Counted from the first letter of the stretch, positions 21,327 through 40,632 are shown. The stretch: 64,000 nt of DNA from a virus (IMGVR_UViG_3300014969_000016:1-64000), one strand, 5' to 3'. Notes: a model not told the origin generated them from the sequence alone. Numbers and translations are program-made.

Positions 21327-21905
21327 CTAACCTCCGTATGGGCCTTCACCGTAGTGGCCGCTGCCGTAGCCAGTTTCTGGAATCGGCAGTGGCACCGTCA
21401 TCACCGACCCTGGACCGAAGTCGAACTGCATGTCGTCGGCCGGGTACGTCTCGATACCGGTGATGCCGATGATCACATCTTCGCCCTTGGCCCGCCCTCG
21501 GATCTGGAAGGCGCTGACTTCCCAGTAGCGGTTGTCGTAGTAGAAGAGGTCGTGTGCCCGGTCTTCCCGCCAGATCTCGGACGGTGATGCGTCAGTGATC
21601 CGGTTGCCGTGAGCCTCGGTGACCGAAACCCCAGCCTCGTAGAGATCGCGAGCAGACACGGCCAGACGAATGCGCAGAGTTGGGCGGCGACCTTCCGGGG
21701 CGTAGTCCTCGGTGGCTTCTGACTGATCGACCCACAGGACGGGGATCCGAAGACCCGGTTGATAACGTCGGTACCCCTCGTCGTAGACGTTGTCATACTC
21801 TGAGTTGGTGCCGTCGAACTTGTAGTAGATGATCGCTTCACCGATGTCCTCCTGGTAGCGACCGAAGTGCTTCCAGATCTCACGGACCTCACGTCGAACG
21901 TCCAT
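21327..21905 (-). CDS. Probable head closure (stopper) protein
   Basis: Position in the neck module; YDNVYDEG...DLFYYDNRYWEV. Confidence 0.55.
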   Translation of the reverse strand: MDVRREVREIWKHFGRYQEDIGEAIIYYKFDGTNSEYDNVYDEGYRRYQPGLRIPVLWVDQSEATEDYAPEGRRPTLRIRLAVSARDLYEAGVSVTEAHGNRITDASPSEIWREDRAHDLFYYDNRYWEVSAFQIRGRAKGEDVIIGITGIETYPADDMQFDFGPGSVMTVPLPIPETGYGSGHYGEGPYGG

Positions 21906-22270
21906 CAGATGTGCTTCTCCCAGTTGGGATGAGCCTTCTTGGCGAGCTTGATGCGGTCGGGCGTGATCGACTCCGGCGTGTACTTAGCTCCCTCACTGCC
22001 GAACTCGTCGTGGTGGACCGGCAACCCGCTGACATCGATACGCCAGCGGTCGTAGCCATAGTGCGTGGCGTCGTGCATGCTGGAGCCGTACTCGGAGTAG
22101 CCGTGCGGCGACATGTACACGCCAGACGGCATGGTTCGGGCGTTCTCGGCGTAACCCATCGTCCCCGGAGATCGGGCGAGCAACCCCCGCCCTCGGATGG
22201 AGTCACGGCTTCTGACCGGTGCTTCGTGGTAGAGGAACTGCTTGCCGTTAACGGCTTCATGGGCGGGCAT
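21905..22270 (-). CDS. ADP-ribosyltransferase-fold protein (Tpt1/KptA-like motifs)
   Basis: LYHEAP...SIRGRGL...GVYMS...WRIDVSGL...YTPESITPDRI resembles the His...S-I-x-x-x-G-L...V-Y-L-S pattern of NAD-binding ART folds. Confidence 0.55.
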   Translation of the reverse strand: MPAHEAVNGKQFLYHEAPVRSRDSIRGRGLLARSPGTMGYAENARTMPSGVYMSPHGYSEYGSSMHDATHYGYDRWRIDVSGLPVHHDEFGSEGAKYTPESITPDRIKLAKKAHPNWEKHI

Positions 22271-22599
22271 CAGGACTTCCTCCGTGGCAACTTGCCGCCA
22301 ACAGAGCGCGCCCAAGCATCACCGGAGTCAGTCCGATCAGCGCTGTGAGCAGGCTTGACGATGTGAGGATTCTCAGCAGCCAGTCGATGGCCCTCGTTCC
22401 ATAGAGCCGTACCAATGCCTTGACGAGGCTCCATGGCCTGGATGAAGTGGATGCCCTTGTGGCTCCACGACATGTGGCCGATCTCGGTGTCACCCTTGAC
22501 CGCCGCCAGTCGGTGTTGGTCGAAGGAGATACCAGACTCGGACGGCGGGTAGTGCTTGTACTGGAACTGCACGTCGGAAAGCTTCTCATGGGCTGGCAT
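22270..22599 (-). CDS. GNAT-family acetyltransferase-like protein
   Basis: RQGIGTALW acetyl-CoA-binding motif; TDSGDAWA. Confidence 0.65.
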   Translation of the reverse strand: MPAHEKLSDVQFQYKHYPPSESGISFDQHRLAAVKGDTEIGHMSWSHKGIHFIQAMEPRQGIGTALWNEGHRLAAENPHIVKPAHSADRTDSGDAWARSVGGKLPRRKS

Positions 22600-23447
22600 C
22601 ACGCACCGCTAGTACCAAGAGTCGTCCAGCCGATCTCACGCCACCCCGGATACCTGCGGTACATATCCGCTGGTGTGAGCGCCTCGGTCACATCGATGAC
22701 ATCGACGCTGTCCCCCCCTGGGCCTTCCATCACACCGTCCGGGATGGGGGGCAGCAGGCGCTTGGGCCAACGTGGATCGTCGGCCTCACGGTCCCGATAC
22801 AGGGGTACGAGCCTGTTAGTCAGGTATGCCACTCGACGCAGCTTGAACTGCTCCAGCGCACCCAGGCCGATGTTCAGAGCCGCCGCCCGCTCGTTGTACT
22901 GGCCCTGCCAGTAGTTGAGCATCTGCAGCACCTGCTGGAAACGCTGGCGGGCCGGGATGTACATGCCCTCCGGTGTTGACACATCGATGTCCATGGAGAA
23001 CTCCAGGCACAACGACCACAACGCCCGCACCACCGCCGACATGGCGGTGACCTCCACGTAGACGCCTTCCAGATCGTCAACGTCGCCGGTCGTGTTGTAC
23101 AACACCTCTTCGGCTGCCGAGCCAGCATGGAGGGCAAGCTCGCTGTCGCTGAACCAGGTGTAGTAGTAGCCCGACACCAACACCCGCTTGTTCAGGGCCG
23201 AGGTGTCGGTGAGCTTGAGCAGGCCGTTGCGGTCATCCAGATCCCAGTCCGTGGTCGGCGTGGAGATGATGTCGGTGGACGGCGGTGGCTCCGGGGTGCC
23301 CAGGAAGACCTGGAGCGAGGCGGGCGAGATCATCGGGTGGGGCAACCTGATGGTCAGCACGTTCATCGGCCCCTGTTCGACTTCGAAGTACTTGGGGAAG
23401 TCGCGCAGGTAGGTGCGGGCGGTTCCGGCGATGCTGGCTACTGACAT
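22599..23447 (-). CDS. Probable head-tail adaptor
   Basis: Position; DIDVSTPEGMYIPARQRFQQ. Confidence 0.55.
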   Translation of the reverse strand: MSVASIAGTARTYLRDFPKYFEVEQGPMNVLTIRLPHPMISPASLQVFLGTPEPPPSTDIISTPTTDWDLDDRNGLLKLTDTSALNKRVLVSGYYYTWFSDSELALHAGSAAEEVLYNTTGDVDDLEGVYVEVTAMSAVVRALWSLCLEFSMDIDVSTPEGMYIPARQRFQQVLQMLNYWQGQYNERAAALNIGLGALEQFKLRRVAYLTNRLVPLYRDREADDPRWPKRLLPPIPDGVMEGPGGDSVDVIDVTEALTPADMYRRYPGWREIGWTTLGTSGA

Positions 23448-23448
23448 G

Positions 23449-23880
23449 TCACAACCTCATCCAGAGTCGGGTCGATGCCGAGACGCCATCGGGGAGAGGG
23501 TCATCAGGTTCACCGGGGCGCACCACCAAAGTGCCGGTGTTGTCCAGGCGCAACGGCCCATCGGCCTCGTTGGTGTCGAACCAGGCGATCAGGTTGGGAT
23601 CGCCGTCGCCACGGTCCTGCACCAGCACCATCTGGTAGTCGGTGTCACCGGGCACCACCTGGAAGAAGGCCGGGTAGCCGACGCAGGCGCCGCCCTCCAG
23701 TACGGCACGGCCCTGGATCTCGGTGCGGGCAACCTCTGTCCCGTCGAGGTCGGACAGTTTCTTCTGCAGGACATCCAGGGAGGAGTCCTTCCGCAGGACG
23801 CCGAGGATCGAATGGACCTGCCAATTGAACTTGCCAGCCGCCAGCAAGTCAACGACCTGCGAGTACTTGCTGTTGGCCAT
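23449..23880 (-). CDS. Hypothetical virion protein
   Basis: GGAGG RBS then MANSKY...; LIAWFDT motif. Confidence 0.55.
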   Translation of the reverse strand: MANSKYSQVVDLLAAGKFNWQVHSILGVLRKDSSLDVLQKKLSDLDGTEVARTEIQGRAVLEGGACVGYPAFFQVVPGDTDYQMVLVQDRGDGDPNLIAWFDTNEADGPLRLDNTGTLVVRPGEPDDPLPDGVSASTRLWMRL

Positions 23881-26800
23881 CTGATACCTCCGTATCAAGA
23901 GTAGATGATGAGGGCCATACCAGGGCCGAACCGCAGTAGATCCTGCTCACTGGCGTGCCGCCCAGGTAGACGGCCAAAGCCTGGTTGAGAACGACGATGC
24001 CCCGCATGTCCACCTCGGGCGAGGTGATCAGGTGCGATGTCGCCTGGACGAGGAGGAAGGCCACCCCGGTGAGGATGAGATTGCTGGTGGCGGTGTGACC
24101 GTGCTGGGCCGAGTCGATGGCCAGGAACTGGTCCTGGGTCAGCCCGACGTTGGTCGAGGTGACAGCGTGGAGGCTCGCAGCAACGACCAGTGATGACCCA
24201 CCGGACAGTGACGGGATGTTGTCGGCGGTGTGGGCGTGGGTGGAGAAGGCAACGACGAGGACGTGCTGCTGTGTCAGCGTGACGTTGTCGGAGGTGACGG
24301 CATGGACCGCATCGGCAACCACCACGCTGAAGGTCTGGACGAGCGTTGGGCTGTCGGAGGTGAGGGCGTGAGCAGCCGCCTGCACGAACAGGTCGGCTAC
24401 CGGCGAGACATTGCTCGCCGTGTGGATGTGGTAGCCGTCGCTGACGATCAGCGACGGCGTGATGATCAGGTTGTCGGCAGCGTGGGCATGGGTGGCGCTG
24501 GCCACCACCATTGACACGCCGAGCGGGGTGACGTTGTCTGCGCTGTGGGCGTGGGCGGCGTCCTGGACCGCCATTGACACACCGAGCGGCGCAACGTTGT
24601 CTGCTGTGTGGGCGTGGAACCCCGGCTGGACGATGAGCAAGGGGACGCCCGACAGCGACACGTCCTGGGCTTCATGCAGGTTGGTGGCGTTATCGACCAA
24701 CAGCCCTGGCGTGATGATGACATCGGGAGAGGTAACAGCGTGCGCTGCGCTCTGGACCGCTGGGTCCACTCCGATGACGGGGCTTACCGAGGTATGGGCA
24801 TGTACCGCAGAGGCAACGACGAGGTCCGGTACCGGATACAGCACCGGAGCATCAGCGAGGTGGACATGTGCCGCCGACTGGACCGCCAGGTCAACGACGA
24901 GATCGACATTGCCCGAGATGTGGACGTGGTTGGCGCTCTGGACAACGAGCACCACGTCGAGAGCGACATTGTCGGCGGTATGAAGATGAGCACCCGCCGC
25001 CACCACCAGGTTGGGGACCGGGTACAGCGGAGCAACGTTGTCAGCCGTGTGAGCGTGAGCAGCGCTATCGACGGCGATGTTGTGGGCCTGGGTGAGATCG
25101 ACATTGCCAGCGCTGTGTAGATGGAGGGCGTTCTGGAGGGCCAGATCACCCTGCATCTGCAGGGTGGGAGCATCAGCCGTGTGCTGGTGTGTTGCACCCT
25201 GCACCACCATGTCCACGCCGAGAGGAGCGACGTTGGCAGCAGTGTGGTCGTGAACCGCCGACTGAACGACGAGGACGACATCGATGGCGACGTTGGCTGC
25301 CGTGTGGAGATGAACAGCGTCAGCAGGAGCCAGGACGACGTAGTTGAGGACAACATTGTCAGCGGTATGAACATGGACGCCGTCCACAACGGCGAGGCTG
25401 GAGCCGCCAGCAATGGCAACGTTGTCTGCCGTGTGCGCGTGTGTGGCGCTTTGAACGACGAGGCTGCTGTTCTCGACCAGCTTCGTGTCGGGGATGATGG
25501 AGGCCGGGTTGCTCAGTGTCCATGTACGACCGCGAGCATCGGTCCAACCAGCGCCACCGGCATACTCGGCAACGTCCATCCGCCACTGGACAGCCCCTGC
25601 GTTGGGGTTGGTGCCCGAGCGCATCTCGACCCAGTAGAACGAACCCTTGGGGGTGTTGTACGGAGCGTTGAACGACTGGGTCGGGCCGATGGTGATCGGG
25701 TAGTTCGTCACCCACGGTGTGTACGGGCCGTAGCCGTCATCGAAGTACGCAGCCGCCGTCCAGGTGACACCATCCACGGACCAGTACAGGTGCATGGTGT
25801 AATTCGGCGTCAGTGTGACAACGAACGCCCAGTACGGAACTGTGGGCGTCAGATTTGAGTCCCAGGTACCAGTGTTGATGACATCGTTGCCGCTGTAGAC
25901 GGGGTCACCGATGGTGAACCATGGCAGGGTCCGGTTGTTAGCTGGATCGACTCGCAGGTTCGCCATGAACGTGAACGGGCCGTAGTCGTTCCACCAGTCA
26001 CCGACACCAGCCGATGCGCTTTGGTAGGCGAGGTAGACATCCCGGAGGTTGGTGACCTTGGCCACGATGGTGAACGCTGGCGATGACAGCGGCCCTGGGT
26101 TTGGTGTCGTGATCTTCCCGAGCAGTGGTTCGTGGTATGGACCCGCCACTGGTGTGATGGTGTGATACCCGGAGTTGACCAGGAGCGTCGGCACCTGCAC
26201 CAACACCACTGGGCCGGTGGTGTGCAGGTTGGTCGCAGACTGGACGACAAGATCGACACCGAGCGCAACGTTCGCCGCCGTGTGAACGTGTACCGCATCC
26301 TGGGTGACGAGGTTGATGCTGGGAACGACGAGAACGGCGTTGTCTGCGGCCTGTGCGTGACTCGCGCTCTGGACAGCCAGGTCAACGACAAGCGGAACAT
26401 CGACAATGCCGCCACCACCAACCGGGGTGATGGTGGCGTAGAACGTGACAACCTGAGTGTCGGTACCACCGGACGGTGACCACACCGACGACAGGCCCGT
26501 TGAGTTGTCGTTGGACAGCGCTGGTCCACCAGGACCGGCGCCGTAGCGGAATCCCCAGGTGGGACTGCCGACCTCGTTGTACTTAATCGCCGCTCCGTAA
26601 CGGACCCCGGCCGTCAGGGCAATCGAACAGGGCTTGGTGATCCAGCCACTGGAGGCTGGCATGGTCATGGGGACAATCGCCCCGATCCGGTTCGTCGGGT
26701 TACCCGTACCGCCGTCGATTTGGTAGATCGCCATCGACGGGTCACCGATGACGGTGTCGTCGTGGTAGATGGACATCGACGTGACCACGTCGCCAGCCGA

Positions 26801-29542
26801 GGCGACGTAGGTGAGGCTGGGGTGGATGAAGCACTGGCTGGCGTAACTGACCAACGCTGAAGCGGGGTTGGCGGCGATGGCGGTGATGCCTGCGTTGATG
26901 GGCGCTGCGCCACTGCCGTAGCCCGAGGTGACGGCGTGGGCGCCGTTGTCCACGACCAGGGTCGTGCTGGTGATGTAGGTGATGGTGACGTTGTCTGATA
27001 CCGATGTATGGGACGCCGCTGCTACGACGAGGCTGACACCTACAGCAACGTTGTCGGCAACGTGAGCGTGCGTCGCCGCCTGGACTGCTATGTCAACACC
27101 GACAGCGATGTTGGCCGCTGTGTGAGCATGCAGAGCGTCAGCCACCACCAAGTTGGTGACCGTGATCTGCGTGAGGACCGTGTTGTCGGCAACGTGAGCG
27201 TGAGCGGCGTCCTGGACGACGAGGACGGTTGGAACGAACTGAGTGATCGTGATGTTGTCGGCCGCGTGAGCGTGAGCGGCATCCTGTACGAAGAGGTCGA
27301 TGGGCGGTGTCGTGACGAGGTTGACGGTCGGCGTGACCGTGTAGGTCATGCTCGCCGTCGAATCGTTGCGGACCACCCGGAAGCGCAGTACATCGCCACC
27401 AGCGAGGTTGGCGGCGATCAGCTTCACCGAGTACAGGATCTCGGTGAAGTTGTTCGCGGCCCAGCCGATGTTCTGGACGTGGCCCAGTTCGGACACTTTG
27501 CCTGGCACGAACGTGCCCGTGCCACCAGTGAGCCGGTTGGTAGTAGCTTGACCCTCGGTCAGGTTGGGGTTGTCATACGGGAGCACAGGAGTCGTCGTGT
27601 AGATCGCGTGCATCGTGTCTACGCTGGCGTTCCCCGTCCAGTAGGGAGTCACTCCGTCGTCCCAGGTGTTGCAGAAGTTGCCCGGTCCTGGTGAAGAACC
27701 CGTGACGGTGTCTTGCACGGAGAGATTCAACGTGTTGGCGGCGGTTGTCCCCGACGGTGCCCGGAAACAAGCCTGATACGCCGTGGCAGCGTTGAGTTTG
27801 ACCGTCCCGTCGAAGATGAACTCGTACCACGTCGGGGTGGTAGTGAGTGTTGTGATATCAATAGAGGTCGTTGAGACTGCCAGCGGCACGGTGTTGCTGC
27901 TGAACTCGTTGCCATAGACGTGGCACACAACTTGGCCGGTAGGGGTACCGGTCTTCGACAAGTGGAATGCAGCCTTGGTGATGTACTCCCCGTTGCCGAT
28001 GAAGTACTGACCGATAACGCGTACCCCCGTGGGGGTGGTACCCAGATAACACGGCTTGTTCCCGGTCCTGTACGTCTCTGGCCACGACTGCAAGAGGGAC
28101 GACGTGGGCGTCGCTACCGAGACGGTGGAGACATCGAAAATCTGGTCGTTCGCCAGAGCAGACCAGCCGGTGGTGTGTTGAGTGGCGTTTCCGCCGTGTG
28201 CCCCGGTGGTGTCCTGCGAGCACGCGAGAGTGTTGCTGGCGTCCGTGCCTGTCACCGACGTGAAGACCTCAACGACATACGGCGTTCCGTTGACGAGGGT
28301 GTACGTCGGGTCGAAGTCGAAGTAGACCCAGGAGAAGGCTGTGGAGATGGCCGAACAGGAGAGGACTGTCGTAGCGTTCGCCAGCGGTGTTCCCGTTCCG
28401 ACACTGCTGGTCCCGTACGTGCCGCTATGGGCGTACAGGCGGGCCGACACGGTGCCGGGAGCAGTCCCGATCCGCTTCAACCACATCCCGACTCTCGACA
28501 GATTCTGGCCGTTACCGAGGAACGACTGCCCCCTGCCGATGGTCGTGAAGTTGATCTGGGCATCGACGCCTGCATTGGTTTCGGAGTACCAGTCGCACCG
28601 CTGTGCTACCGAAGCGGCGACGACAGATGTCCAGGCACCGTTGGCGTTGCGCTCCCATTGGAGTCGGTAGTCATCAGTGGCCGGAACGGTCTGGGAGTTC
28701 GTGGACTGCAACCGCACCCGGATCATCCCGTAGCCGTCGCCAGTAGAGGGGTTGGCAGTGAGAGCGGTGTCCTGGGCGGCGAGAGCGGCGGCACCGGACT
28801 CAGTACCGGCCTCGTCGTAGAGACGGTACGCCGCTTGTGCGATAGTAGGTTCGGGGATCGGCTGGAGGACCGCACAGATGGAGCCGTTGCCAGCCGTCAT
28901 CGCCCCGGCGTTGAGATACGTCTCATGTGTGCCGGTGGACAGCTTGTACTGGAAACCGCCGAAGTTGTTGGTGGCGGCGCTGCCGCCTGTGGACCCCACG
29001 CTATGGGGGACCGCTGGAGTCCACCCGTTGCAGCCAAACGGGACAGCAGCAGAGTTTGACCCGAACATGAAGCCGAGGGCGAGGTCATTAGTAGACGGCA
29101 CAGTGCCACTGGTGGAACCGGACGCTTGTGTGATCGTTGTCGAGTAGGCGGTCCCAACTGTGTTACGGAGAATGGCCTGCGTTCCCGAGAACTCCGTGAA
29201 CAGGATCGCCTTCTGTGTCACCGACGAGTCAAGGGTGACGGTGTAGGCGGCAGCCGACCAGTTGACGGTCGTCTGGATGCACCACATCTCACCTGAGGAG
29301 AAGGCACCAGCCGAGGTGGAGGTAGAGCGGGCTGCTCCGAGGAACAGCCAGTTGTTCGTCTCCCCGGCCATCTTGGTGATGGACGAGACGATGGGTTTGG
29401 AGGCCGTGGTGAAGTTGTCGAACAGGACGCAGGCAACGATCACGTTGCCCGCCGTCGTGGCACCCGTCGTCGTCAGGGCCAGCGTTGTACCGGCCGTCTT
29501 GTTGGAGGTGTTGCCCAGGTTCTGAACGAATGCTGGGATCAC
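23849..29542 (-). CDS. Giant (1897 aa) fibre/adhesin-like virion protein with His-rich repeats
   Basis: Long ORF with dozens of [LV]-V-V-x-x-A-x-H-x-H-x-A-D-N-V repeats and several beta-rich globular domains. Confidence 0.75.
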   Translation of the reverse strand: MIPAFVQNLGNTSNKTAGTTLALTTTGATTAGNVIVACVLFDNFTTASKPIVSSITKMAGETNNWLFLGAARSTSTSAGAFSSGEMWCIQTTVNWSAAAYTVTLDSSVTQKAILFTEFSGTQAILRNTVGTAYSTTITQASGSTSGTVPSTNDLALGFMFGSNSAAVPFGCNGWTPAVPHSVGSTGGSAATNNFGGFQYKLSTGTHETYLNAGAMTAGNGSICAVLQPIPEPTIAQAAYRLYDEAGTESGAAALAAQDTALTANPSTGDGYGMIRVRLQSTNSQTVPATDDYRLQWERNANGAWTSVVAASVAQRCDWYSETNAGVDAQINFTTIGRGQSFLGNGQNLSRVGMWLKRIGTAPGTVSARLYAHSGTYGTSSVGTGTPLANATTVLSCSAISTAFSWVYFDFDPTYTLVNGTPYVVEVFTSVTGTDASNTLACSQDTTGAHGGNATQHTTGWSALANDQIFDVSTVSVATPTSSLLQSWPETYRTGNKPCYLGTTPTGVRVIGQYFIGNGEYITKAAFHLSKTGTPTGQVVCHVYGNEFSSNTVPLAVSTTSIDITTLTTTPTWYEFIFDGTVKLNAATAYQACFRAPSGTTAANTLNLSVQDTVTGSSPGPGNFCNTWDDGVTPYWTGNASVDTMHAIYTTTPVLPYDNPNLTEGQATTNRLTGGTGTFVPGKVSELGHVQNIGWAANNFTEILYSVKLIAANLAGGDVLRFRVVRNDSTASMTYTVTPTVNLVTTPPIDLFVQDAAHAHAADNITITQFVPTVLVVQDAAHAHVADNTVLTQITVTNLVVADALHAHTAANIAVGVDIAVQAATHAHVADNVAVGVSLVVAAASHTSVSDNVTITYITSTTLVVDNGAHAVTSGYGSGAAPINAGITAIAANPASALVSYASQCFIHPSLTYVASAGDVVTSMSIYHDDTVIGDPSMAIYQIDGGTGNPTNRIGAIVPMTMPASSGWITKPCSIALTAGVRYGAAIKYNEVGSPTWGFRYGAGPGGPALSNDNSTGLSSVWSPSGGTDTQVVTFYATITPVGGGGIVDVPLVVDLAVQSASHAQAADNAVLVVPSINLVTQDAVHVHTAANVALGVDLVVQSATNLHTTGPVVLVQVPTLLVNSGYHTITPVAGPYHEPLLGKITTPNPGPLSSPAFTIVAKVTNLRDVYLAYQSASAGVGDWWNDYGPFTFMANLRVDPANNRTLPWFTIGDPVYSGNDVINTGTWDSNLTPTVPYWAFVVTLTPNYTMHLYWSVDGVTWTAAAYFDDGYGPYTPWVTNYPITIGPTQSFNAPYNTPKGSFYWVEMRSGTNPNAGAVQWRMDVAEYAGGAGWTDARGRTWTLSNPASIIPDTKLVENSSLVVQSATHAHTADNVAIAGGSSLAVVDGVHVHTADNVVLNYVVLAPADAVHLHTAANVAIDVVLVVQSAVHDHTAANVAPLGVDMVVQGATHQHTADAPTLQMQGDLALQNALHLHSAGNVDLTQAHNIAVDSAAHAHTADNVAPLYPVPNLVVAAGAHLHTADNVALDVVLVVQSANHVHISGNVDLVVDLAVQSAAHVHLADAPVLYPVPDLVVASAVHAHTSVSPVIGVDPAVQSAAHAVTSPDVIITPGLLVDNATNLHEAQDVSLSGVPLLIVQPGFHAHTADNVAPLGVSMAVQDAAHAHSADNVTPLGVSMVVASATHAHAADNLIITPSLIVSDGYHIHTASNVSPVADLFVQAAAHALTSDSPTLVQTFSVVVADAVHAVTSDNVTLTQQHVLVVAFSTHAHTADNIPSLSGGSSLVVAASLHAVTSTNVGLTQDQFLAIDSAQHGHTATSNLILTGVAFLLVQATSHLITSPEVDMRGIVVLNQALAVYLGGTPVSRIYCGSALVWPSSSTLDTEVSDGQQQVLAGR

Positions 29543-29557
29543 GGGGTTACCCCGCGA

Positions 29558-29674
29558 CTATTCGTCGTCGGTGAAGTCCGAGTCGGCACCGATGGTGCCG
29601 TCGTCAACCTCCAGAGTGGTGGCACCAGGCTCTTCCTTCTCGCCCTCCTCGGGGGGAGGTGCGTCGTCGCTCAC
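29558..29674 (-). CDS. Small acidic peptide
   Basis: GTG overlaps the upstream stop; (M)SDDAPPPEEGEKEE...FTDDE. Confidence 0.4.
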   Translation of the reverse strand: MSDDAPPPEEGEKEEPGATTLEVDDGTIGADSDFTDDE

Positions 29675-30036: not shown

Positions 30037-30046
30037 TGGTATCTCC

Positions 30047-32561: not shown

Positions 32562-32573
32562 TGTCGGCTGCTC

Positions 32574-32906
32574 CTATCCGCGATGGTGGATGTACCCCAG
32601 GTTGTTGAGATAACGAGCGATCTCGACAGGGATGCGGTACCGCTTGCCCGCCTCCAGGCGGTACGTGTAGTGCGGGTTCCCGTACGTGAACTCTTCGATG
32701 GTTTCGGCCATCCGGATCTCCACGTATCCCTTGCTGTCCACAGCAGAGGTCGGCCTGTCCTCCAGCGGTTCGACTTCGATCTCACGATGCCGGGGCTGGT
32801 TGGTCTGAAACCCGAGGTCTGACGGACGGGTGACCTCGCTCAGGGCGGGGTCCATGTCCGGATCGATCTCGACTTCGGCCTCTTGCTGCTGTCTCGTCGT
32901 TGCCAC
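32574..32906 (-). CDS. Hypothetical head-associated protein
   Basis: AAGGAG RBS; downstream of the capsid genes. Confidence 0.55.
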   Translation of the reverse strand: MATTRQQQEAEVEIDPDMDPALSEVTRPSDLGFQTNQPRHREIEVEPLEDRPTSAVDSKGYVEIRMAETIEEFTYGNPHYTYRLEAGKRYRIPVEIARYLNNLGYIHHRG

Positions 32907-32946
32907 GATGGTGTTCTCCTTGATATCCCGGTATGAGATTACGTGA

Positions 32947-33891
32947 TCAGGCCGAAGCGAGATCCTCTAGCTGTGCGATCAGCGTGGACCGGTTCTTGCC
33001 CGCTTCCTCGGCGGCGATCAGGTCTTCGACTTGGTCGGGGTTGGCCTCGGCGTACTCCACGACATCGGCCACCGAGTAGTCGGCCGGGTCGTAGGGCACC
33101 TGGGAGTCCAGCCACGACAGCAGGGATGAACGGGCCTTGCCCGCCAACTCGGCGTCGTAGATGGCTCCGGCCTCGTCGGGGTGTTCAGCGACGAACTCCT
33201 GCACCTCGGCCACGCTGTGGGCAGCCGGGTCGTAGCCGACAGCGATGTCGTCGGATGACTCATTTCCACCTTCTCTTCCTGCTGACAACAGGCCAGCCGA
33301 GGGGCCGGTGCCCGTCGCCACCGGAACGGTGACGGTGTAAACGCCAGCGGCCGGGTACTGCGCCGAATCCGACGTGACCGTGCCTCCCGACGCCGCCGAC
33401 GTGACATCGGCTCCTGTGCAGGGGAAGGTGAACGTGGTGCCCGAGGGCGTGCTGGCGATGGTGAACGTCCCGTTGAAGGGAGCGACCATGCCGGTGATGA
33501 CCACCGACTGGCCGACCTTGAAGCCGTGCGTGGCTGACGTAGTGAGGGTGGCGACGTTGGATGCCAGCGCCTTGTTCGACACGGTGCGTGGCACATTGGT
33601 GACAGTCAGCGTGGCCGTCTTGGTGGGCTGGGTCGGCCGGGTGGGATCACCGAAGGTGGTGCCGACAGCGGCGTAGGTGACCTCGGTCGGATCAGCCTTC
33701 ACCTGTGGCGTGGGAGTGCCGTCAGGCGGGAAGGCCCAGGAGAAGTCCTGGTCGGGTCGGGTGGTGCTCTGGTCGAGCTTGTAGTCCCACTTCAGCCCAT
33801 TGGTCGAGTTGACCGTGGCCATGACTGGCCCGGACTCCTGAACGCCTCGCGATCCCCAGGTGTTGGGTCCGTGGACGGCAACGATGCTCAT
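32947..33891 (-). CDS. Head decoration-like protein
   Basis: Follows the MCP; beta-rich domain (HGFKVGQSVVITG) and two YDP...V.EV..E.AGK.RS.L repeats. Confidence 0.55.
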   Translation of the reverse strand: MSIVAVHGPNTWGSRGVQESGPVMATVNSTNGLKWDYKLDQSTTRPDQDFSWAFPPDGTPTPQVKADPTEVTYAAVGTTFGDPTRPTQPTKTATLTVTNVPRTVSNKALASNVATLTTSATHGFKVGQSVVITGMVAPFNGTFTIASTPSGTTFTFPCTGADVTSAASGGTVTSDSAQYPAAGVYTVTVPVATGTGPSAGLLSAGREGGNESSDDIAVGYDPAAHSVAEVQEFVAEHPDEAGAIYDAELAGKARSSLLSWLDSQVPYDPADYSVADVVEYAEANPDQVEDLIAAEEAGKNRSTLIAQLEDLASA

Positions 33892-33913
33892 GTGATACCT
33901 CCGTATCGACAGC

Positions 33914-33943
33914 GTGGGAGAGGGGTTTGACCCCCTCTCCCAC
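33914..33943 (-). terminator. Stem-loop downstream of the major capsid gene
   Basis: 12-bp GTGGGAGAGGGG/CCCCTCTCCCAC inverted repeat. Confidence 0.55.
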
Positions 33944-33959
33944 TCACGCTGCGTTGGGC

Positions 33960-35303
33960 CTAGTTGGTGATGATCTTGACGACCGACGAGTCGGTGATGA
34001 CTCCCCAGCCCCAGATGCTGTACCAGGCCAGAGCGTGCTCACGACCGAAGTCGAGCACGCCGCCGTCACGGAGTTCGACCGGCAGCGAGATGGCGTGGCC
34101 GAAGGCGTTGTCGCCCAGCATGATCGCCTCGTAGATGCCGTTCGACGGACCCCACGGCTCGCCCCAGCCAGGCAGCGCCGTCTCACCTGTGGGCAAGTCG
34201 TCCAGCGCAGCCGGGTCAGCGATATCGGGGTAGGGCGACGGGTCGGCAGCACCTTGAATGTCGCCACCGGTCACGCCGAGGGCGTTGCCACGCCAGTCCG
34301 GGTTGAACGGGTTGACCGAGGTGAGGTTCCCACCAGGGAGTTGTGGCCACAGGTCGGTGGCATCCACCGTGCCAGCGAGCGGGCTGGACACCTGCGTCGT
34401 CTCGATGAAGACCACGTCGTCCAGTCGGCCGACCTCTCCGAGCATGAAGTTGCCCGGTGCGGCATACTTGGTTACCTCGATCCATTCCGGAGTATCGCGC
34501 AGGCGACGACTCTGGTGTGGATGGATGAAACACACGTATGTTTCACCGAGGCGGGGGACGTTCTTGGTGGCCAGCACCTCGACGGCGTCCTTCACCGAGT
34601 ACGGCGTGAGCCAGAAGTTGTCGTCCAGCGCCGGGGTGCCCGCAGAGGTCGTGACCTGGGCGAGGCCGGTGGCGGGGGTGCCGCCCTCGTACACGCCGTA
34701 GCCGACGTTGATGGCGGTCGGCTTGGCGTAGCCGAAGACCACCGACGTGGAGCGGGAGAGCGTCTGGCGAGCCTGGGAGTCCATGTACAGCGCCATGTTC
34801 CGGCCGAGCAGCCGGGACGACGACGCCATGATGTCATCGAAGCTGGCATTCAGCAGGAGTTCGGATACGGCGACGGCGAAGCCTTGCTCCTGCACCGTGA
34901 TCGCGTACTGGTTCGCCGTGATCGCGTGGGTCTTCATCCGCACGCCTTCGATCAGCGGACCCGAGGGCATCGGGAGATTGTTGTATCGCATGAAGTTCAC
35001 GGTCAATCCCGGCATCGTGCCGAGTTCCGTCTTCTTTACTGCGAATTGTTCGAACCGGAGTACCGGCATCGACTGGAACAGGATCTCCTTCGACCAGATC
35101 GTCTGGATCGCTGGACCCAGCATTGTCGATCCGGTCGCCACTGATCCCGAGTAGCCGACCGCCGTGTTGTCGAGGGTTGCCGTTCCACGATAGCCAACCG
35201 GCATGTCGTAGTTGGAGTATGGGCCTCCGGTCGCGAGCCTCGTTGTACCGGCGATACCGGATACGACAGGAAGTTCGCCACCGAGGCTGCCACCTGCTGG
35301 CAT
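33960..35303 (-). CDS. Major capsid protein (N4-gp56-like family)
   Basis: WSKEILFQSMPVLRFEQFA, IHPHQ...LR, GEVGRLDDVVFIETT, DFGREHALAWY. Confidence 0.9.
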   Translation of the reverse strand: MPAGGSLGGELPVVSGIAGTTRLATGGPYSNYDMPVGYRGTATLDNTAVGYSGSVATGSTMLGPAIQTIWSKEILFQSMPVLRFEQFAVKKTELGTMPGLTVNFMRYNNLPMPSGPLIEGVRMKTHAITANQYAITVQEQGFAVAVSELLLNASFDDIMASSSRLLGRNMALYMDSQARQTLSRSTSVVFGYAKPTAINVGYGVYEGGTPATGLAQVTTSAGTPALDDNFWLTPYSVKDAVEVLATKNVPRLGETYVCFIHPHQSRRLRDTPEWIEVTKYAAPGNFMLGEVGRLDDVVFIETTQVSSPLAGTVDATDLWPQLPGGNLTSVNPFNPDWRGNALGVTGGDIQGAADPSPYPDIADPAALDDLPTGETALPGWGEPWGPSNGIYEAIMLGDNAFGHAISLPVELRDGGVLDFGREHALAWYSIWGWGVITDSSVVKIITN

Positions 35304-35371
35304 GGTGATCTCCTTCTGGAGCGTGGGGACGACGGGCGCCCCCTATGTGGGGTGATGTGTTACCCGTGTGA

Positions 35372-36193
35372 TCAGCCCAGTCGGCGTGACTGGCTGGTCG
35401 CCTGAAGGAGTTGATTCCTGTACTTCTTGTACGTTTCCATGTCCATGCCACGAATGTCTTCGGGCGTCAACGATTCATACGACGGCAATTGCTCCATTGG
35501 ACCAACAGGTGGGGCCGTGGGTGCGGCCCCTCTCGGTGCGAACGGAACCTGCGGTGGTTCCACGGCTGCGAAGTTGGCGAGGACAGAAGCTGTGCGCTCC
35601 TTCATCACCTCGATTGAGTGGTCGATCTCCTCGGGGGTGGCCCCTTGGATGAAGTCACGAAGTTCAGGAAGGATGTCGTTCGCTTCCTGAGCGATCCGGT
35701 CACGACGGTACAACTCGGCCTCTTGTAGCTGGCGCTCCTTCGCGAACACCTCACGGTCGGCGTTGTACCGCCCCTCCAGAGTGGCCAGTTGGCTGTTCCA
35801 CTCCTGCTCCCGCTTCTCCAGAAGCTCCCGAACGCCAAGTTCGGTTTCCTCCTGGGCCTTCTGCGCGTTGGCTGCCTCCTGGGCAAGCCGTTCACGTTCG
35901 GCCTTCTCGGCCTCACGCTCTTGGCGCAACTGCTTGAGTTGCTCCGACATTTCCTCCAACCGGGGATAGAGCTTGTCCTTCTCCTGCTTGCGGGCGTTCT
36001 CCACGTCTTCGTCGGTCCACCGGTAGGCGGGCCGCTCTTCGGGAGGCGGCTGTTGGCGGGAGGGTGTGGGCTGGCTCACGGCCTGATCAGGCCGGGTCTG
36101 CTGGTAATCGACGGCGTAGCGCGGCTGAGCCGGATCGACGCCGACGAGTAGTCCCTGACCCGTCTCTGAGATGTTCCCCTGCGTGTTCGACAT
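35372..36193 (-). CDS. Capsid scaffolding protein
   Basis: Between portal and MCP; coiled-coil, EKDKLY motif. Confidence 0.8.
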   Translation of the reverse strand: MSNTQGNISETGQGLLVGVDPAQPRYAVDYQQTRPDQAVSQPTPSRQQPPPEERPAYRWTDEDVENARKQEKDKLYPRLEEMSEQLKQLRQEREAEKAERERLAQEAANAQKAQEETELGVRELLEKREQEWNSQLATLEGRYNADREVFAKERQLQEAELYRRDRIAQEANDILPELRDFIQGATPEEIDHSIEVMKERTASVLANFAAVEPPQVPFAPRGAAPTAPPVGPMEQLPSYESLTPEDIRGMDMETYKKYRNQLLQATSQSRRLG

Positions 36194-36290
36194 GTGTTCC
36201 CTCGGGTTGTCCCTGTGTTTCAGTTGGTATTTCTAGCACGGATGCCGCTGATATACGAGTATCTCATCGCTAAGGGACGTATCAGCGTCA

Positions 36291-37949
36291 TCACGTCTGG
36301 TCATCCGACTCAAAGTCGGCTAGCTGTGGCGGCATGCCGCCGTACGCCAGGAACTGAAGCTCCTGGGCGATCTCGGGGTTGATCGGTGGCTGGGCGATCT
36401 GTGGGTTGCCCTCGGCATCGGCCCCCATCATCGGTGTGCCATCGGGCATCATGCCGGTAGCAGCCATGTTGAAGGCGGCGATCTGGTTCTGGACGAGGGT
36501 GAGGGCGCCCGCCTCCTTGGCATCCTCCATGACCTCTTCGAAGATCTCCCTGATCTTCTGGTCGGGGAACTGTGTGCCCAGGTCACGCAGGGCGCCACGC
36601 CTGGATTCAAGCTGCATCGCCATCAGCGCCTGGATCTCGTTGATCTTGAGCAGCCGGTCGATGGGCATCGGGCTGGGCCAGTCCACGTACGTGCGGTAGC
36701 TGACCGCCAACGTCGGGTCCAGTTGCTGCATCTGGTCGGCCTTGAGGTACGTGGAGGACCGCACCGGGTCGTACATCGTCAACTCGGGGGCGAAGACGAA
36801 GGCGTGGCGGATGATCAACTCGTTGACCCGTTCGAACAGCCGGGTGTAGTTGACCTTCTTGCGGTCGTGCTTCAGCATCAGCGGCTGGTACTGGATCGAC
36901 AACGCCACGCCCGACGTGTTGGAGATCGGCTGCATCGTGCCGAGAGCAGTCGCTGGTACCCCGGTTAGCTCATGCATCGCCTGCTTCAGCAACTCCATGT
37001 AGCCCAGTGGCCCAGTGAAGTTGGTCTGTAGCTCCAACTGCTGGATCTTGGCGTCCTTGTTGGTGACGGCCCACACCTTGCGCGGACCCTTCTCCAGGTT
37101 CGACGCCTTGGCTCCTGTTATGACAGTGACCGGGCTGGCGTGGTAGTTGATGATGTCCGAGATCTCCGTGGCCTTCTCGTTGTACTCACGGTTCAGCGGG
37201 ATGATGTCGATGATGTCTGCCAGACCCCATGGGCTGGAGGCCACTGTGATATTGGGGCAGAAGGCGACTGCTATCTCACCAATCGGGTTGGGCCGAGAGT
37301 CGATCATCTCGTCGTTGATGTACTCTTCGATCATGTCCTCCGTCATCAACTCGACGTAGGTCATGACCTGGCGTGTTCCGTCGCTGGCGGTCCCGAAGAA
37401 CTTGTACTTGGTCTTGAACCGGATCATGCGGGAGCGGTCGTGCGGATGCCACTCCGGGAAGCAGAAGGCCGGGTTGATAGGAAGGATCCTGATGCGGCCC
37501 TCTTGCGGGACACCGGCCGGGTCAACGTATGGTGGCTCGTATGCCACCTTCACGAAGCAGTCGCCGCTCACCGAGCCAAGCTGCGCTAGCTCCATCAACA
37601 CCTGTTGCTTGTTGTTATGAACTTCCCACACTTCCTTGAGCGTGTAGGGCGTGATCGCAGCGGTCGCTTCCGGGCTGTAGAAGTTGACGCCCTTGGTGAA
37701 GGAGAAGTTGACCAGGTAGTCGGAGAAGGCCTTGACCCAGTTGAAGGTGAGTTGTGGCTCCCCGATCTCGCGCTTGTACGCCCAGTGGTGCCCGAGGTAC
37801 CACGCCCAGTTCGACGCGTAGCGGTTCATACGTGGGCCGTGGACTTCGAACTCCTCGTCGGCAAGCTCCACAAGCCCCAGCGGTGATATCGCAACGGTGA
37901 GGTCAGATGCCGCCGCCCGATAGCTGGGTGCGTTGAAGGCGACGGTCAT
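36291..37949 (-). CDS. Portal protein
   Basis: 552 aa; GSVSGDCFVKV, WGLADI, MHELTGVP...SNTSGVAL. Confidence 0.9.
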   Translation of the reverse strand: MTVAFNAPSYRAAASDLTVAISPLGLVELADEEFEVHGPRMNRYASNWAWYLGHHWAYKREIGEPQLTFNWVKAFSDYLVNFSFTKGVNFYSPEATAAITPYTLKEVWEVHNNKQQVLMELAQLGSVSGDCFVKVAYEPPYVDPAGVPQEGRIRILPINPAFCFPEWHPHDRSRMIRFKTKYKFFGTASDGTRQVMTYVELMTEDMIEEYINDEMIDSRPNPIGEIAVAFCPNITVASSPWGLADIIDIIPLNREYNEKATEISDIINYHASPVTVITGAKASNLEKGPRKVWAVTNKDAKIQQLELQTNFTGPLGYMELLKQAMHELTGVPATALGTMQPISNTSGVALSIQYQPLMLKHDRKKVNYTRLFERVNELIIRHAFVFAPELTMYDPVRSSTYLKADQMQQLDPTLAVSYRTYVDWPSPMPIDRLLKINEIQALMAMQLESRRGALRDLGTQFPDQKIREIFEEVMEDAKEAGALTLVQNQIAAFNMAATGMMPDGTPMMGADAEGNPQIAQPPINPEIAQELQFLAYGGMPPQLADFESDDQT

Positions 37950-38122
37950 ACACGCCTACCGTACTGGCTATCCCAGTGGGGTTGCTGTTGCTGCTGCTGA
38001 GTCATGTAGGCGTCGTTCTCGTCGCGCTCTTGGCGGCTGGTCGTCACCTTGCCGCCCTGGTGCCGGTGCCCGTAGTCAGCAGGGTTGAACAGTTGCGGGT
38101 GAAGGTGGTCGGTTGCTGCCAT
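37946..38122 (-). CDS. Small protein with N-terminal MAATDHLHPQLF tag
   Basis: Manual translation (58 aa); start and stop both overlap the neighbouring genes. Confidence 0.65.
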   Translation of the reverse strand: MAATDHLHPQLFNPADYGHRHQGGKVTTSRQERDENDAYMTQQQQQQPHWDSQYGRRV

Positions 38123-38502
38123 CAGGGGAACGACGGAAATCTGTTGGTGGTCACGGGCTGCTGAGGTTCCGGGGTGCTGCGCTTGGTGTAGTCCCGGTAC
38201 TGCACCGGGACATAGCTGCGGGGATTGGCGGTGTATGCCGCCATGATGCGATGGTGCCCGGAGACGATCTTCTGCTCGCCGCCTTCGTGGATCCCGAGCG
38301 TCACCGGGTACTCGACACCACGCTTGGCCACGTCGGCAGCCAGACCGTCAGCGGCGTTGTCCTTGCGCTTGGAAGTCCACATCTGGTCGTGTGACTTCCA
38401 CCCGGCCGGGTGGCTGGGATCAACATCGGCCGATCTGTAGTCCTGCAGTAGCTCCCGTGCTGTCATGAACAGCTTGCCCTGGAGGTGATCGGTGGCAGCC
38501 AT
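38122..38502 (-). CDS. ParB/sulfiredoxin-like N-terminal domain protein
   Basis: LAADVAKRGVEYPV...IVSGHHRIMAA. Confidence 0.7.
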   Translation of the reverse strand: MAATDHLQGKLFMTARELLQDYRSADVDPSHPAGWKSHDQMWTSKRKDNAADGLAADVAKRGVEYPVTLGIHEGGEQKIVSGHHRIMAAYTANPRSYVPVQYRDYTKRSTPEPQQPVTTNRFPSFP

Positions 38503-39344
38503 CAGAACAGGGTTCCCTGGTTCGGATCGTGCCTGGACTCCTGGTGGCCAGCGTGGAACTCTTCGGTGCGATCACGTGGGTGCAGTTCGGACAGCAGCGG
38601 TTCGTGGGCACTCTCGGTGATGGCCCCCCACTTCTCCAGGCCCGCCGCCGCACCGATCCGGTTCACATCCTTCTCACCGAAGTCGATGGCCTCGCCCAGG
38701 CTCATGCTCGACCTCAGCAAGTCCCACTTGGGGGTGTAGCCGATGTGCCTGCCGGTCTGCTGGTTCTCAATGGCGTGGACGTTGTCGAACATCGTCTGCT
38801 GAACGTGGGGCAGGATGGCCTGCTCGTCATCCAGCCGTCGAAACTCCGGGGTGCCGTGGACAGCATGGTGGACCAGATCGACGTAGTTGTTGTTGCCACG
38901 TGATTCGATGGTCGGCTCCCGGCCGGTGGGTTCATACTCATGTACGCCAGCCGGGGCGACGGCATGGTCACGCACCGTGGCTCCAGGCCGCAGACGCACC
39001 TCGGCCTCCATGTCCAGCCCCCACTGTGACTTGCCTGTCTTGAACTTGCCCTCTGAGTCCGTGTAATGCGAGCGGATGTTGCCGCCCTTCCACTCGCCCT
39101 CGGTGATGACCTGATCGCGAGACACGGTGGCCCGGTGGACGAAGCGGTCGTCGCCAGATCCACCAAGGCCGGTGTAGTGCGAGACGTTCTCGTCGGTTGA
39201 CCAGTGGATACCGAGCGAACCGCCAGGGTCACCCTTCTGCATGCGGTAGACCGTCATGCTCTCGGGCGGATTCTTGGCCATCTCCTTGAACTGCTCCTTG
39301 CGGAGGTTGCTGGCCCGGTACTCCTCGTCGGACATGCGCTCCAT
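38502..39344 (-). CDS. ADP-ribosyltransferase-like protein (R-S-E type motifs)
   Basis: TVYR...IHWSTD...EAEVRL pattern. Confidence 0.55.
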   Translation of the reverse strand: MERMSDEEYRASNLRKEQFKEMAKNPPESMTVYRMQKGDPGGSLGIHWSTDENVSHYTGLGGSGDDRFVHRATVSRDQVITEGEWKGGNIRSHYTDSEGKFKTGKSQWGLDMEAEVRLRPGATVRDHAVAPAGVHEYEPTGREPTIESRGNNNYVDLVHHAVHGTPEFRRLDDEQAILPHVQQTMFDNVHAIENQQTGRHIGYTPKWDLLRSSMSLGEAIDFGEKDVNRIGAAAGLEKWGAITESAHEPLLSELHPRDRTEEFHAGHQESRHDPNQGTLF

Positions 39345-39562
39345 CAGAACGTCGGCTTTGAGTAGGGCGACTTCATACGCATGTAGCTGCGGTACTGGTT
39401 CTTCTGCGGATTGCGCTGGTAGAACGCCGGGAACTGCTTGCTGGACATGGGCGGGAACGGATCGTTGACCGGGCGTGTGTCATGTTTCGCAGCGGCCAGC
39501 GTGACGTGATGACGCGACGCCTGGCGGCGGGGGCGACTCTCCCCCCGATACTCACTAGCCAC
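39344..39562 (-). CDS. Small basic hypothetical protein
   Basis: GTG start overlapping the upstream gene; stop overlaps the next ATG. Confidence 0.5.
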   Translation of the reverse strand: MASEYRGESRPRRQASRHHVTLAAAKHDTRPVNDPFPPMSSKQFPAFYQRNPQKNQYRSYMRMKSPYSKPTF

Positions 39563-39845
39563 GGAACCCCGGAGCGCCCTTGACGTGATAGCCCCGGCCG
39601 CTCTCGTTCTTCTCCAGCGCCGGTCCCTTGCCGAAGTCACCTCCACCACCAGGGCGGTACGAACCAACCACCCGTCCTGTTGACCACTTGCCGGAACTTT
39701 CCGTGGTGACGCCAGTACCAGGCTCATCGAACAACATGTCTTGGGAGATAAGGCCAGATAGCTGCGTGCTCTTGCCCACCTTCCGCTTGGGGTGGTTGGC
39801 CTTGTCCGGGGCCAACCTGCCATCGTCTCGGTGTCCACTAGCCAT
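39555..39845 (-). CDS. Hypothetical protein
   Basis: GGAGG RBS, 96 aa. Confidence 0.6.
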   Translation of the reverse strand: MASGHRDDGRLAPDKANHPKRKVGKSTQLSGLISQDMLFDEPGTGVTTESSGKWSTGRVVGSYRPGGGGDFGKGPALEKNESGRGYHVKGAPGFRG

Positions 39846-39860
39846 TGTGATACCTCCGTA

Positions 39861-40151
39861 TCAGCCCTTCCAGGTTCCGCTGCGGCGCTCGTTCTCGCTG
39901 GCGGGTCCGTGGTGCGTGTAGCCCTGGCTGAGGTAGTCGCCGCCCTCGTTGTAGCGACTGACGTACTGGCGCCGGGTAGCGACGCCGCCCACGTCCACGA
40001 CGGAGTTGTCGAACACCTCGCGATGCACCTTGCGGTCAGGGTTGTCAGCCTGGTTCGCCGCCAGCCGCCGACCGGACGACGACATCTTGTACTGGTGGGC
40101 CGGTGTTGACCGTTCCTTCTTGATGGCAGCGACCTGCTCAGCGCGCTTCAC
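39861..40151 (-). CDS. Hypothetical protein
   Basis: Translationally coupled ORF. Confidence 0.6.
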   Translation of the reverse strand: MKRAEQVAAIKKERSTPAHQYKMSSSGRRLAANQADNPDRKVHREVFDNSVVDVGGVATRRQYVSRYNEGGDYLSQGYTHHGPASENERRSGTWKG

Positions 40152-40303
40152 TTCTTCTTCGCTTCCTTCTTCAGGACGCCGCTGGCCTTCTTGATGGCCT
40201 TGCCCTCGGAGTCACCGGACTTCTCGGCCGACTCACGCACGTGCTCCCACTGACGGGACTTCTTGGCGGTGTTGGCCTTCTTGGTGTGTTCGGATGCGGG
40301 CAT
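40148..40303 (-). CDS. Small Lys-rich protein
   Basis: MPASEHTKKANT...RQWEHV; GGAGG RBS. Confidence 0.6.
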   Translation of the reverse strand: MPASEHTKKANTAKKSRQWEHVRESAEKSGDSEGKAIKKASGVLKKEAKKK

Positions 40304-40404
40304 CAGATCCTCCCTCGCAGTAGCAAGATGACGAGCAGGATGATCAGGATCAGCAGGATGACGCCCCCGCCGATGTAGAGGCCACCAGCAAGTAGGGGAA
40401 ACAT
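40303..40404 (-). CDS. 33-aa single-pass membrane peptide
   Basis: Manual translation MFPLLAGGLYIGGGVILLILIILLVILLLRGRI; TGATG overlaps at both ends. Confidence 0.6.
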   Translation of the reverse strand: MFPLLAGGLYIGGGVILLILIILLVILLLRGRI

Positions 40405-40622
40405 CAGCCACCTCTCCTTCGGTCACGTTCACGGTCGTAGGCATCGGGGTCTTCGTTCATGGCGATGCCTTCGAAGTTGGGCTTGACCTTGTTCCACTTC
40501 GGGTCGGGTGGCCCGTACTCCGGGTAGCTGGCCATCGAACGGGAGAGGGCGTCGAACTCCGGCCCCCGAAAGCGTTCACGGTGAACCTGACGGTTGGGGT
40601 CGTTCTCTCTACGGTCAGCCAT
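40404..40622 (-). CDS. Hypothetical protein
   Basis: GAGG RBS; coupled ORF. Confidence 0.6.
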   Translation of the reverse strand: MADRRENDPNRQVHRERFRGPEFDALSRSMASYPEYGPPDPKWNKVKPNFEGIAMNEDPDAYDRERDRRRGG

Positions 40623-40632
40623 CGATACCTCT

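Follow-up and report, generated by a model that had tools for sequence, protein, structure and literature searches.

The N-terminal leader and its recurrence in related phages

The locus described here raises the question of why four otherwise unrelated small proteins of one virus should begin with the same short peptide. It lies in the window, i.e., the whole 64,000-nucleotide stretch IMGVR_UViG_3300014969_000016:1-64000 that was analysed, which is the first 64 kb of a 115.7-kb metagenome viral contig, 98% complete by its IMG/VR record. The four proteins, named A, B, C and D below (Table 1), start with MPAHEAVNGKQF, MPAHEKLSDVQF, MAATDHLQGKLF and MAATDHLHPQLF, respectively, and the leader that they share, called the tag, has the consensus M-[PA]-A-[H/T/S]-[E/D]-x-[L/V/I]-x3-[Q/L]-F. 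A preliminary description of the window had reported these N-termini and proposed that a modular tag carries interchangeable enzymes into the phage head for injection. All four were present on the minus strand exactly as claimed. The tag is real and strictly N-terminal, and it is not a product of chance.

Genes in the 115.7-kb genome were called heuristically, i.e., by third-position G+C content (GC) and start context, and 152 proteins were predicted. Among their 11,476 pairs, A-B (6/11) and C-D (8/11) were the only ones with at least six identities over positions 2-12. No pair reached six identities in internal 11-residue windows, and shuffled sequences gave a mean of 0.2 such pairs. The strict regular expression, applied post hoc to every candidate start in the six frames, gave no match besides these four. 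On a tag profile the four tags scored 28-31 bits; because they belonged to the training set of the profile, these scores are descriptive only. The next-best N-terminus, MPASEH at 40303, scored -6.4. This string and two others had been put forward as relatives of the tag in neighbouring genes, and none of the three could be kept, i.e., MPASEH by its score, MSSKQF as internal to a 72-aa frame, and NLRKEQF as part of a 280-aa protein (38502-39344) with no homology to a tagged family. The 280-aa protein was considered in particular as a relative of a tagged 163-aa family, and homology was not found.

Within this genome alone, the link between tags of the MPAHE type and those of the MAATDHL type is thin. 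It is established by intermediate forms elsewhere, i.e., MPAHEHVSFGQF, MAAHDHLHPQLF, MAASDHLHPTLF and MAAKDSLHPQQF, which bridge the two types.

The motif was searched in 82 IMG/VR loci that had been fetched by the portal and the 282-aa neck protein only, blind to the tag. These loci comprise 794 kb, i.e., 1.59 million six-frame positions, 4.7% of which are ATG, GTG or TTG. The pattern x[PA]Ax[DE]x[LV]xxx[QL]F, with any first residue allowed, was matched five times (four distinct sequences), and all five matches lay at ATG or GTG on the portal strand and opened open reading frames (ORFs) of 108-151 aa. The chance of all four distinct matches being starts is approximately 5e-6. After further tags had been added by DNA-pattern scans of IMG/VR and of Joint Genome Institute (JGI) metagenomes, 61 distinct tagged ORFs were counted (46-200 aa, median 121; source contigs of 40-67% GC), among which some of the singleton metagenome ORFs may be chance matches. 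A homologue of D with MAATDHLQMQLF was found in L002. A pattern scan of 185,579 bacterial genomes gave at least 120 matches, nearly all of them in-frame internal Met residues in unrelated proteins (non-ribosomal peptide synthetase condensation domains, HExxH peptidases, antisense frames); prophage copies were not found, and the host could not be deduced from the matches.

The codons of the leader reveal purifying selection on its amino acids. Among 28 distinct tags, all four Ala codons (GCA, GCC, GCT and GCG) are used for Ala3, and Leu7 is encoded by CTC, CTG, CTT, CTA and TTA. Swaps among these tags are conservative (E/D at position 5, L/V/I at 7, Q/L at 11), and the invariance of F12 in them was imposed by the search pattern. 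The first seven codons of C and D differ at four synonymous and zero non-synonymous sites. Because codons vary freely while the residues or their chemical class stay, selection acts on the peptide.

These data bear on the possibility that the tag is a functionless leftover of descent or of recombination at gene starts, or mere chance. The A-B similarity of 6/11, taken alone, is only about five times the shuffle expectation in this genome, and the tag is dispensable in close relatives, as such an origin would allow. It is nearly excluded, however, by the position of all matches in independent DNA at start codons, by the occurrence of 61 tagged ORFs with unrelated folds, a wide GC range and saturated synonymous sites, and by the GNAT family of B, whose consensus has MPAHE and whose Q11 and F12 show a conservation of at least 90%.

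The start context of the tagged genes could point to another use of the shared 5' end, i.e., start selection without a Shine-Dalgarno sequence, by coupled re-initiation or on leaderless transcripts. The ATG of each of A, B, C and D overlaps the stop codon of the preceding gene (TGATG). Nearly all tagged genes likewise start at stop-start overlaps (TGATG/TAATG) or at GTG six nucleotides past TANNNT, and a Shine-Dalgarno sequence is missing in many of them. However, many untagged genes of the same genome have the same overlaps, conservation of the tag reaches residues 11-12, and third and even first codon positions (TTA vs CTN) vary. Since synonymous codons vary while the peptide is kept, an RNA-level start signal is unlikely, and a service to expression is regarded as a very improbable explanation of the tag as a whole.

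In the GTG-started tagged genes (L119:3575, L135:12676, L125:630 and the 169-aa ORF of L128), the TANNNT element (TAAGAT, TAGGAT, TATACT) lies exactly six bases upstream. The same spacing is typical of the leaderless transcripts that are frequent in Actinobacteria, a hint that these genes have promoters of their own and that even the 44%-GC phages infect actinobacteria.

AlphaFold2 (AF2) models of A and B were built from family alignments. In the model of A, the predicted local distance difference test score (pLDDT) is below 50 for residues 1-9 and strand 1 comprises residues 12-18, in a model whose mean pLDDT is only 68. In the model of B, the first ten residues average a pLDDT of 55 and strand 1 runs from residue 10. 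Only Q11-F12 of the tag extend into strand 1. Both models thus show the leader as a flexible N-terminal extension. Because residues 1-9 are of low confidence and strand 1 begins at residues 10-12, the leader proper would be approximately ten residues long, with Q/L11-F12 as the cargo junction. The idea that the tag is an integral part of each cargo fold was rejected in view of the unrelated folds and the low confidence of this region in the A and B models.

Cargo families behind the leader

When the cargo was clustered by BLAST from residue 15 onwards, 28 clusters resulted; with remote homology and a few doubtful singletons taken into account, the tag heads at least ten unrelated cargo kinds. 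In the GNAT and ADP-ribosyltransferase (ART) families, most members start with M[PA]AHE, and a substantial minority have short unrelated residues directly before the conserved QF instead. The window itself holds an untagged 105-aa counterpart of a 151-aa protein of L122 that starts with MPAHENLHSGQF (Table 1); the two phages are close relatives (portal 90% identical), and the alignment of the two proteins begins only past the leader. A 200-aa protein in L116 is composed of the tag, a 27-residue linker rich in Pro, Ala and Gly, and a ParB-like domain. With the same tag on so many kinds of cargo, and with families that occur with and without the MPAHE head, the reading of a modular tag with interchangeable, unrelated enzyme cargo is well supported.

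Protein B has 61 homologue clusters, most of which start M[PA]AHE..QF. It had been described as a GNAT acetyltransferase. B itself gave no Pfam match, but its homologue in L116 passes the Pfam cut-offs for Acetyltransf_10 and Acetyltransf_1, and all top fold matches of the B model are GNATs (probability 0.99-1.0, E about 1e-2), which confirms the label. In the GNAT motif RxxGxG/A of the family, R59 and G61 are invariant.

Protein A has 26 homologue clusters, in which H15 and E60 are invariant and Y52 is nearly so. The best Foldseek matches of its model are KptA/Tpt1 (E 2.7e-4 to 1e-3, probability 1.0), followed by PARP, DarT and Arr, and the ART fold assigned to A earlier was upheld. By the modelled fold, H15, Y52 and E60 would form the H-Y-E catalytic triad of ARTs. 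The same could not be said of the 280-aa protein mentioned above, whose ART label was not confirmed.

The ParB-like label of C is borne out weakly. It matched a ParB-like PHROG (E 9e-4), and the family profile searched against PDB gave ParB proteins as its best, weak matches (E 0.045-0.32). Pfam ParB_N matched 1 of 27 family members (E 0.003). A GHHR motif is invariant in the alignment of this large phage family, and C is a paralogue of an ORF at 83944-84417 of the same genome. Protein D and several other tagged proteins gave no family match.

A further kind of cargo was recognized in a tagged 110-aa protein of L075, which matches Pfam Arr-ms, the family of Arr-type rifampin ADP-ribosyltransferases (E 4.9e-8; 33.5 bits, cut-off 25). 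The Arr-ms domain starts at residue 12, i.e., directly behind the tag. Neither the tag nor most of the cargo has a family in Pfam or PHROGs.

The cargo classes could point to a role for the tag inside the producing cell. As a regulatory handle, it could be a degron, an autoinhibitory cap or a common binding site of a phage chaperone or inhibitor, and it would keep potentially toxic enzymes silent or short-lived there. The enzymes are of toxin-like classes (ART, GNAT, ParB nuclease-like), the tag is flexible and exposed in the models, and headless paralogues coexist with tagged ones, all of which would suit such a handle. However, no conserved companion gene was found in seven genomes, and non-enzymatic proteins of 55-58 aa carry the tag too. 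Once Met is removed the N-terminus would be Pro or Ala, and neither is a destabilising residue in the bacterial N-end rule. A regulatory handle in general seems quite unlikely.

Another short motif was observed in the family of C. In its members (38122-38502; 83944-84417; L013:6894; L027:791; L129:7418; L133:10906; several in L283), a conserved Q-[L/F]-x-M-F directly precedes the first strand (MF[MI]PAxEL), with or without the MPAHE head. It resembles the sliding-clamp motif QLxLF, and in C it is shortened and fused with the tag (QGKLF). The C-terminus of the 280-aa protein reads ...DPNQGTLF. In G001, a complete relative, AATDARQGTLF lies close to the N-terminus of a KTSC-domain protein, and MAAHGLMDQGAADPRQGQLF opens a 424-aa ORF. 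From these sequences, D-x-x-Q-G-x-L-F may be a second recurrent short motif.

Gene context and the possible destination of the tagged proteins

The genes of A and B occupy a slot between two neck genes whose counterparts, gp74 and gp75, abut directly in the Streptomyces myophage GiJojo. The same slot in L004 and L013 holds other tagged genes. C and D stand directly before the portal gene, as tagged genes do in L003 and L027, and in other relatives the tagged genes adjoin TerL. In the window phage and its high-GC relatives, tagged genes are translationally coupled insertions at several independent sites of the TerL-portal-neck operon. The earlier placement of tagged genes in a late head/neck operon holds for these phages and fails for the complete relative G007, which is described below.

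In low-GC contigs, four to seven consecutive genes are tagged, each with different cargo (G006/L132, G007/L128, G008/L133, L129, L283 and L348). In G006, five tagged genes at 1.8-4.5 kb start with one for a GNAT, followed by two for Arr-like proteins, one for a 163-aa protein of unknown kind and another for a GNAT; a headless ART-like gene and a 56-aa near-tag gene precede the last GNAT. Such tandem arrays of differently loaded tagged genes are the pattern expected of a cargo-addressing signal.

Because an exposed, strictly N-terminal and conserved peptide heads many unrelated small enzymes, often in arrays, it is reasonable to consider the leader an addressing signal. Very probably it binds some partner, whatever that partner is, and the 12-residue leader would then dock many unrelated small enzymes to one common site of attachment. 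Among candidate partners, a component of the assembling virion, i.e., the scaffold, the inner capsid surface or the portal, ranks first. In that case the tagged GNAT, ADP-ribosyltransferase and ParB-like enzymes would be packed in the head and would enter the next host with the DNA, the leader apparently not being removed by proteolysis, and untagged paralogues encoded by these phages would remain behind in the cell where the particles are made. We infer partner binding, the virion identity of the partner and the delivery of the cargo alike, and the complete proposal, a portable leader that addresses co-delivered cargo to the virion, is drawn by analogy and is put forward as plausible, if still short of probable. 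A virion address is favoured because the window phage and its high-GC relatives have the genes inside the structural operon and coupled to it, because the signals of T4 internal proteins and P1 DarB are precedents, and because ART and ParB are classic head-packaged effectors.

Several results weigh against a virion address. G007 is a phage genome of 97 kb (99% complete, 44.6% GC) with a portal approximately 55% identical to that of the window. Its structural genes, which are on the minus strand, span 81-97 kb and 0-13 kb, and its tagged genes form a divergent two-operon island at 36-43.5 kb; the nearest gene of the structural module, TerL (approximately 11.4-13 kb), is approximately 23 kb off. 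G001, the closest complete relative (portal 90% identical), has no tagged gene, so the tag is dispensable. The GenBank phage search found no cultured phage that carries these genes. The genome, 98% complete, gave no match to the prohead protease families S77, S78 and ClpP of Pfam, even with E values of up to 1 admitted, in a search that covered these families and leaves room for a protease of another one, and it has no MuF protein. Across seven genomes, no protein of the window phage except B itself tracks the presence or absence of the tag. The N-terminus of the major capsid protein (MCP), M[PA]xGxxLGGxLP, is unlike the tag, with a profile score of about 0. The cargo has no unusual charge either; its charge and size are unremarkable, and the median isoelectric point is 6.4.

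Mimicry of the MCP N-arm by the tag was considered and rejected because of this profile score. The large ORFs adjoining tagged genes, compared among the window phage (G000), G001 and G007, showed no detectable mutual relationship.

The island of G007 (36041-43546, L141-L142) holds approximately 15 small genes in two divergent operons. Encoded there are a ParB-like protein, an FmdB-type zinc-ribbon protein, three or four GNATs and several ART-like proteins (YHGS, YHAS, FHGS), and roughly half of the genes have the tag or a variant close to it (MTRKHTHINEELF, MKPLNEYQF).

In the 50,697 GenBank phage records, no homologue of B, C or the Arr-like cargo was found. A had one weak match, gp245 of mycobacteriophage Tonenili, which is headless. 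This gene (L272:3899-4276) lies two genes past the major head protein of a cluster C mycobacteriophage, with a small zinc-finger gene between, and its product has a distinct 34-residue N-terminal extension.

The position of the G007 island outside the structural operon is better suited to the main rival, a host partner. The leader would then dock the enzymes to a conserved host machine, e.g., the DnaN sliding clamp, RNA polymerase or the ribosome. The partner must be conserved over phages of 40-67% GC, and a universal host protein fits this demand. The clamp can be considered more closely, since its binding motif is QL[SD]LF, in which position 4 needs L or M. Both this motif and the tag end in F on a flexible terminus, and the low pLDDT of residues 1-9 agrees with the flexible terminus or loop on which clamp motifs are placed. 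A minority of tags read QxxLF (QGKLF, QMQLF), the ParB-like family has Q[LF]xMF beside the tag, the 280-aa protein ends in QGTLF, and no sliding clamp was found in the phage genome. On the other hand, the 28 tags as a set do not follow the pattern of Q at position 1 and L/M at position 4. Most of them end in QF: the residue before F, which has to be L or M in the clamp motif, is Q in 21 of 28. The first Q is not kept either, and no preference is seen among S, N, H and Q at the position four before F. The fixed distance of the tag from Met1 is not typical of clamp motifs. It is also hard to see why a replisome would need GNAT, Arr-like and unknown small proteins alike. Docking to a host machine is rated as unlikely.

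For the virion address, two phage systems are close precedents. T4 IPIII has a short N-terminal capsid signal; that of P1 DarB comprises more than 9 but fewer than 30 residues and suffices for loading a reporter (PMC9024508). The T4 capsid targeting sequence of IPI-III and Alt goes back to Mullaney and Black 1996, as cited in PMC9024508. Head-packaged effector domains include ART (T4 Alt) and ParB (P1 DdrB, a ParB-domain protein carried in the head of P1), and these are hub domains of phage polyvalent proteins (PMC5512222).

Like the T4 sequence, the tag is a short N-terminal peptide common to unrelated, hypervariable small accessory proteins, including an ADP-ribosyltransferase. Unlike in T4, no S77 or other known prohead protease was found, and the host lineage differs, judging by the Streptomyces-phage relatives. 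The T4 proteins are located in the virion, whereas a virion location of the tagged proteins is a proposal. We know of no sequence resemblance between the tag and the T4 capsid targeting sequence. With P1 the tag shares the N-terminal signal and the ParB-domain cargo; P1 has one large cargo that depends on the helpers Hdf and DarA, whereas the tag is common to many small cargos, for which no helper was found.

The repertoire of ART, ParB/Srx and acetyltransferase-type domains beside portal and head genes also resembles that of MuF-fused polymorphic toxins and polyvalent proteins (PMC5512222, PMC3482391). In those systems the domains are covalently fused to MuF or portal, whereas here they are separate proteins of 50-200 aa with a 12-residue leader and no MuF. 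Outside phages, the cargo-loading peptides of encapsulins, which are usually C-terminal, address diverse enzymes inside an HK97-fold shell. They are similar to the tag as short terminal peptides on diverse enzymes, and they differ from it in consensus and in their usual position.

Full-text literature searches found no description of the tag system. N-terminal addressing of cargo is already known in phages; what is new here is the unrelated sequence, the many cargos and the apparent lack of proteolytic processing. A wider proposal, to which we give somewhat less credence than to the virion address itself, is that a large clade of uncultivated myophages related to BRock-like Streptomyces phages loads an interchangeable arsenal of small enzymes into the virion by a protease-independent 12-residue address, for co-injection. 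If true, the system would correspond to MuF-fused toxins and polyvalent proteins in a split form that relies on a tag.

The meaning of the leader depends on its partner. If it is an address at all, an unrecognised effector system would be at hand, in which a peptide predicts the shared destination of accessory proteins across a phage clade. Dozens of unstudied small enzymes, i.e., minimal GNATs, Arr- and Tpt1-like ARTs and ParB-like proteins, would then become candidate effectors of host takeover or anti-defence. If the destination is the virion, this would be a further natural case of tag-directed packaging after T4 and P1, apparently without proteolysis, and the tag could be used for loading foreign proteins into phage particles. 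If the partner is instead a host factor, a 12-residue motif kept over 40-67% GC would point to a conserved, vulnerable site of the host.

Genome setting and neighbouring genes

The window has a GC of 62.6%, and its minus strand holds nearly all genes (Table 1). The Streptomyces myophages BRock, GiJojo, Alone3, LuckySocke and pSt2308 have portals that share approximately 56% identity with that of the window phage.

Table 1. Tagged proteins and neighbouring features of the window; positions are counted from its first nucleotide
Feature	Length (aa)	Position	Strand	Remarks
A	121	21905-22270	-	Tpt1/KptA-like ADP-ribosyltransferase fold (model); start MPAHEAVNGKQF
B	109	22270-22599	-	minimal GNAT acetyltransferase; start MPAHEKLSDVQF
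C	126	38122-38502	-	putative ParB/Srx-like protein; start MAATDHLQGKLF
D	58	37946-38122	-	glutamine-rich; end overlaps portal start; start MAATDHLHPQLF
Untagged cargo counterpart	105	40633-40950	-	BLASTP E 5e-15 to the 151-aa protein of L122
Neck-region gene	192	21327-21905	-	downstream flank of the A/B slot; homologous to GiJojo gp75 and to flanking genes in L004 and L013
Neck-region structural gene	282	22599-23447	-	upstream flank of the A/B insertion slot; homologue of GiJojo gp74
Portal		36291-37949	-	Pfam SPP1_portal, E 7.7e-25; immediately downstream of C and D
Scaffold		35372-36193	-	late region
Major capsid protein (MCP)		33960-35303	-	late region
697-aa ORF	697	41296-43389	-	between TerL and portal; no Pfam family
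TerL		44200-45672	-	Pfam Terminase_6C/6N
626-aa ORF	626	15527-17407	-	sheath-like N-terminus, by likeness to the annotated tail sheath of GiJojo

The late region also encodes a collar-domain protein, a large fibre protein and neck genes. The interval between TerL and portal comprises a 120-aa ORF, the 697-aa ORF and approximately ten small ORFs. No relatives of the 697-aa ORF were detectable in G001 or G007.

The MCP is 447 aa long, compared with 340 aa in GiJojo, and its N-terminus is approximately 100 residues longer. Its start is conserved as M[PA]xGxxLGGxLPxxSGITGTTR. Among the small ORFs of the TerL-portal interval, those at 39861-40151 and 40404-40622 have a common motif (ADNPDRKVHREVF and ENDPNRQVHRERF, respectively) and are apparent paralogues.

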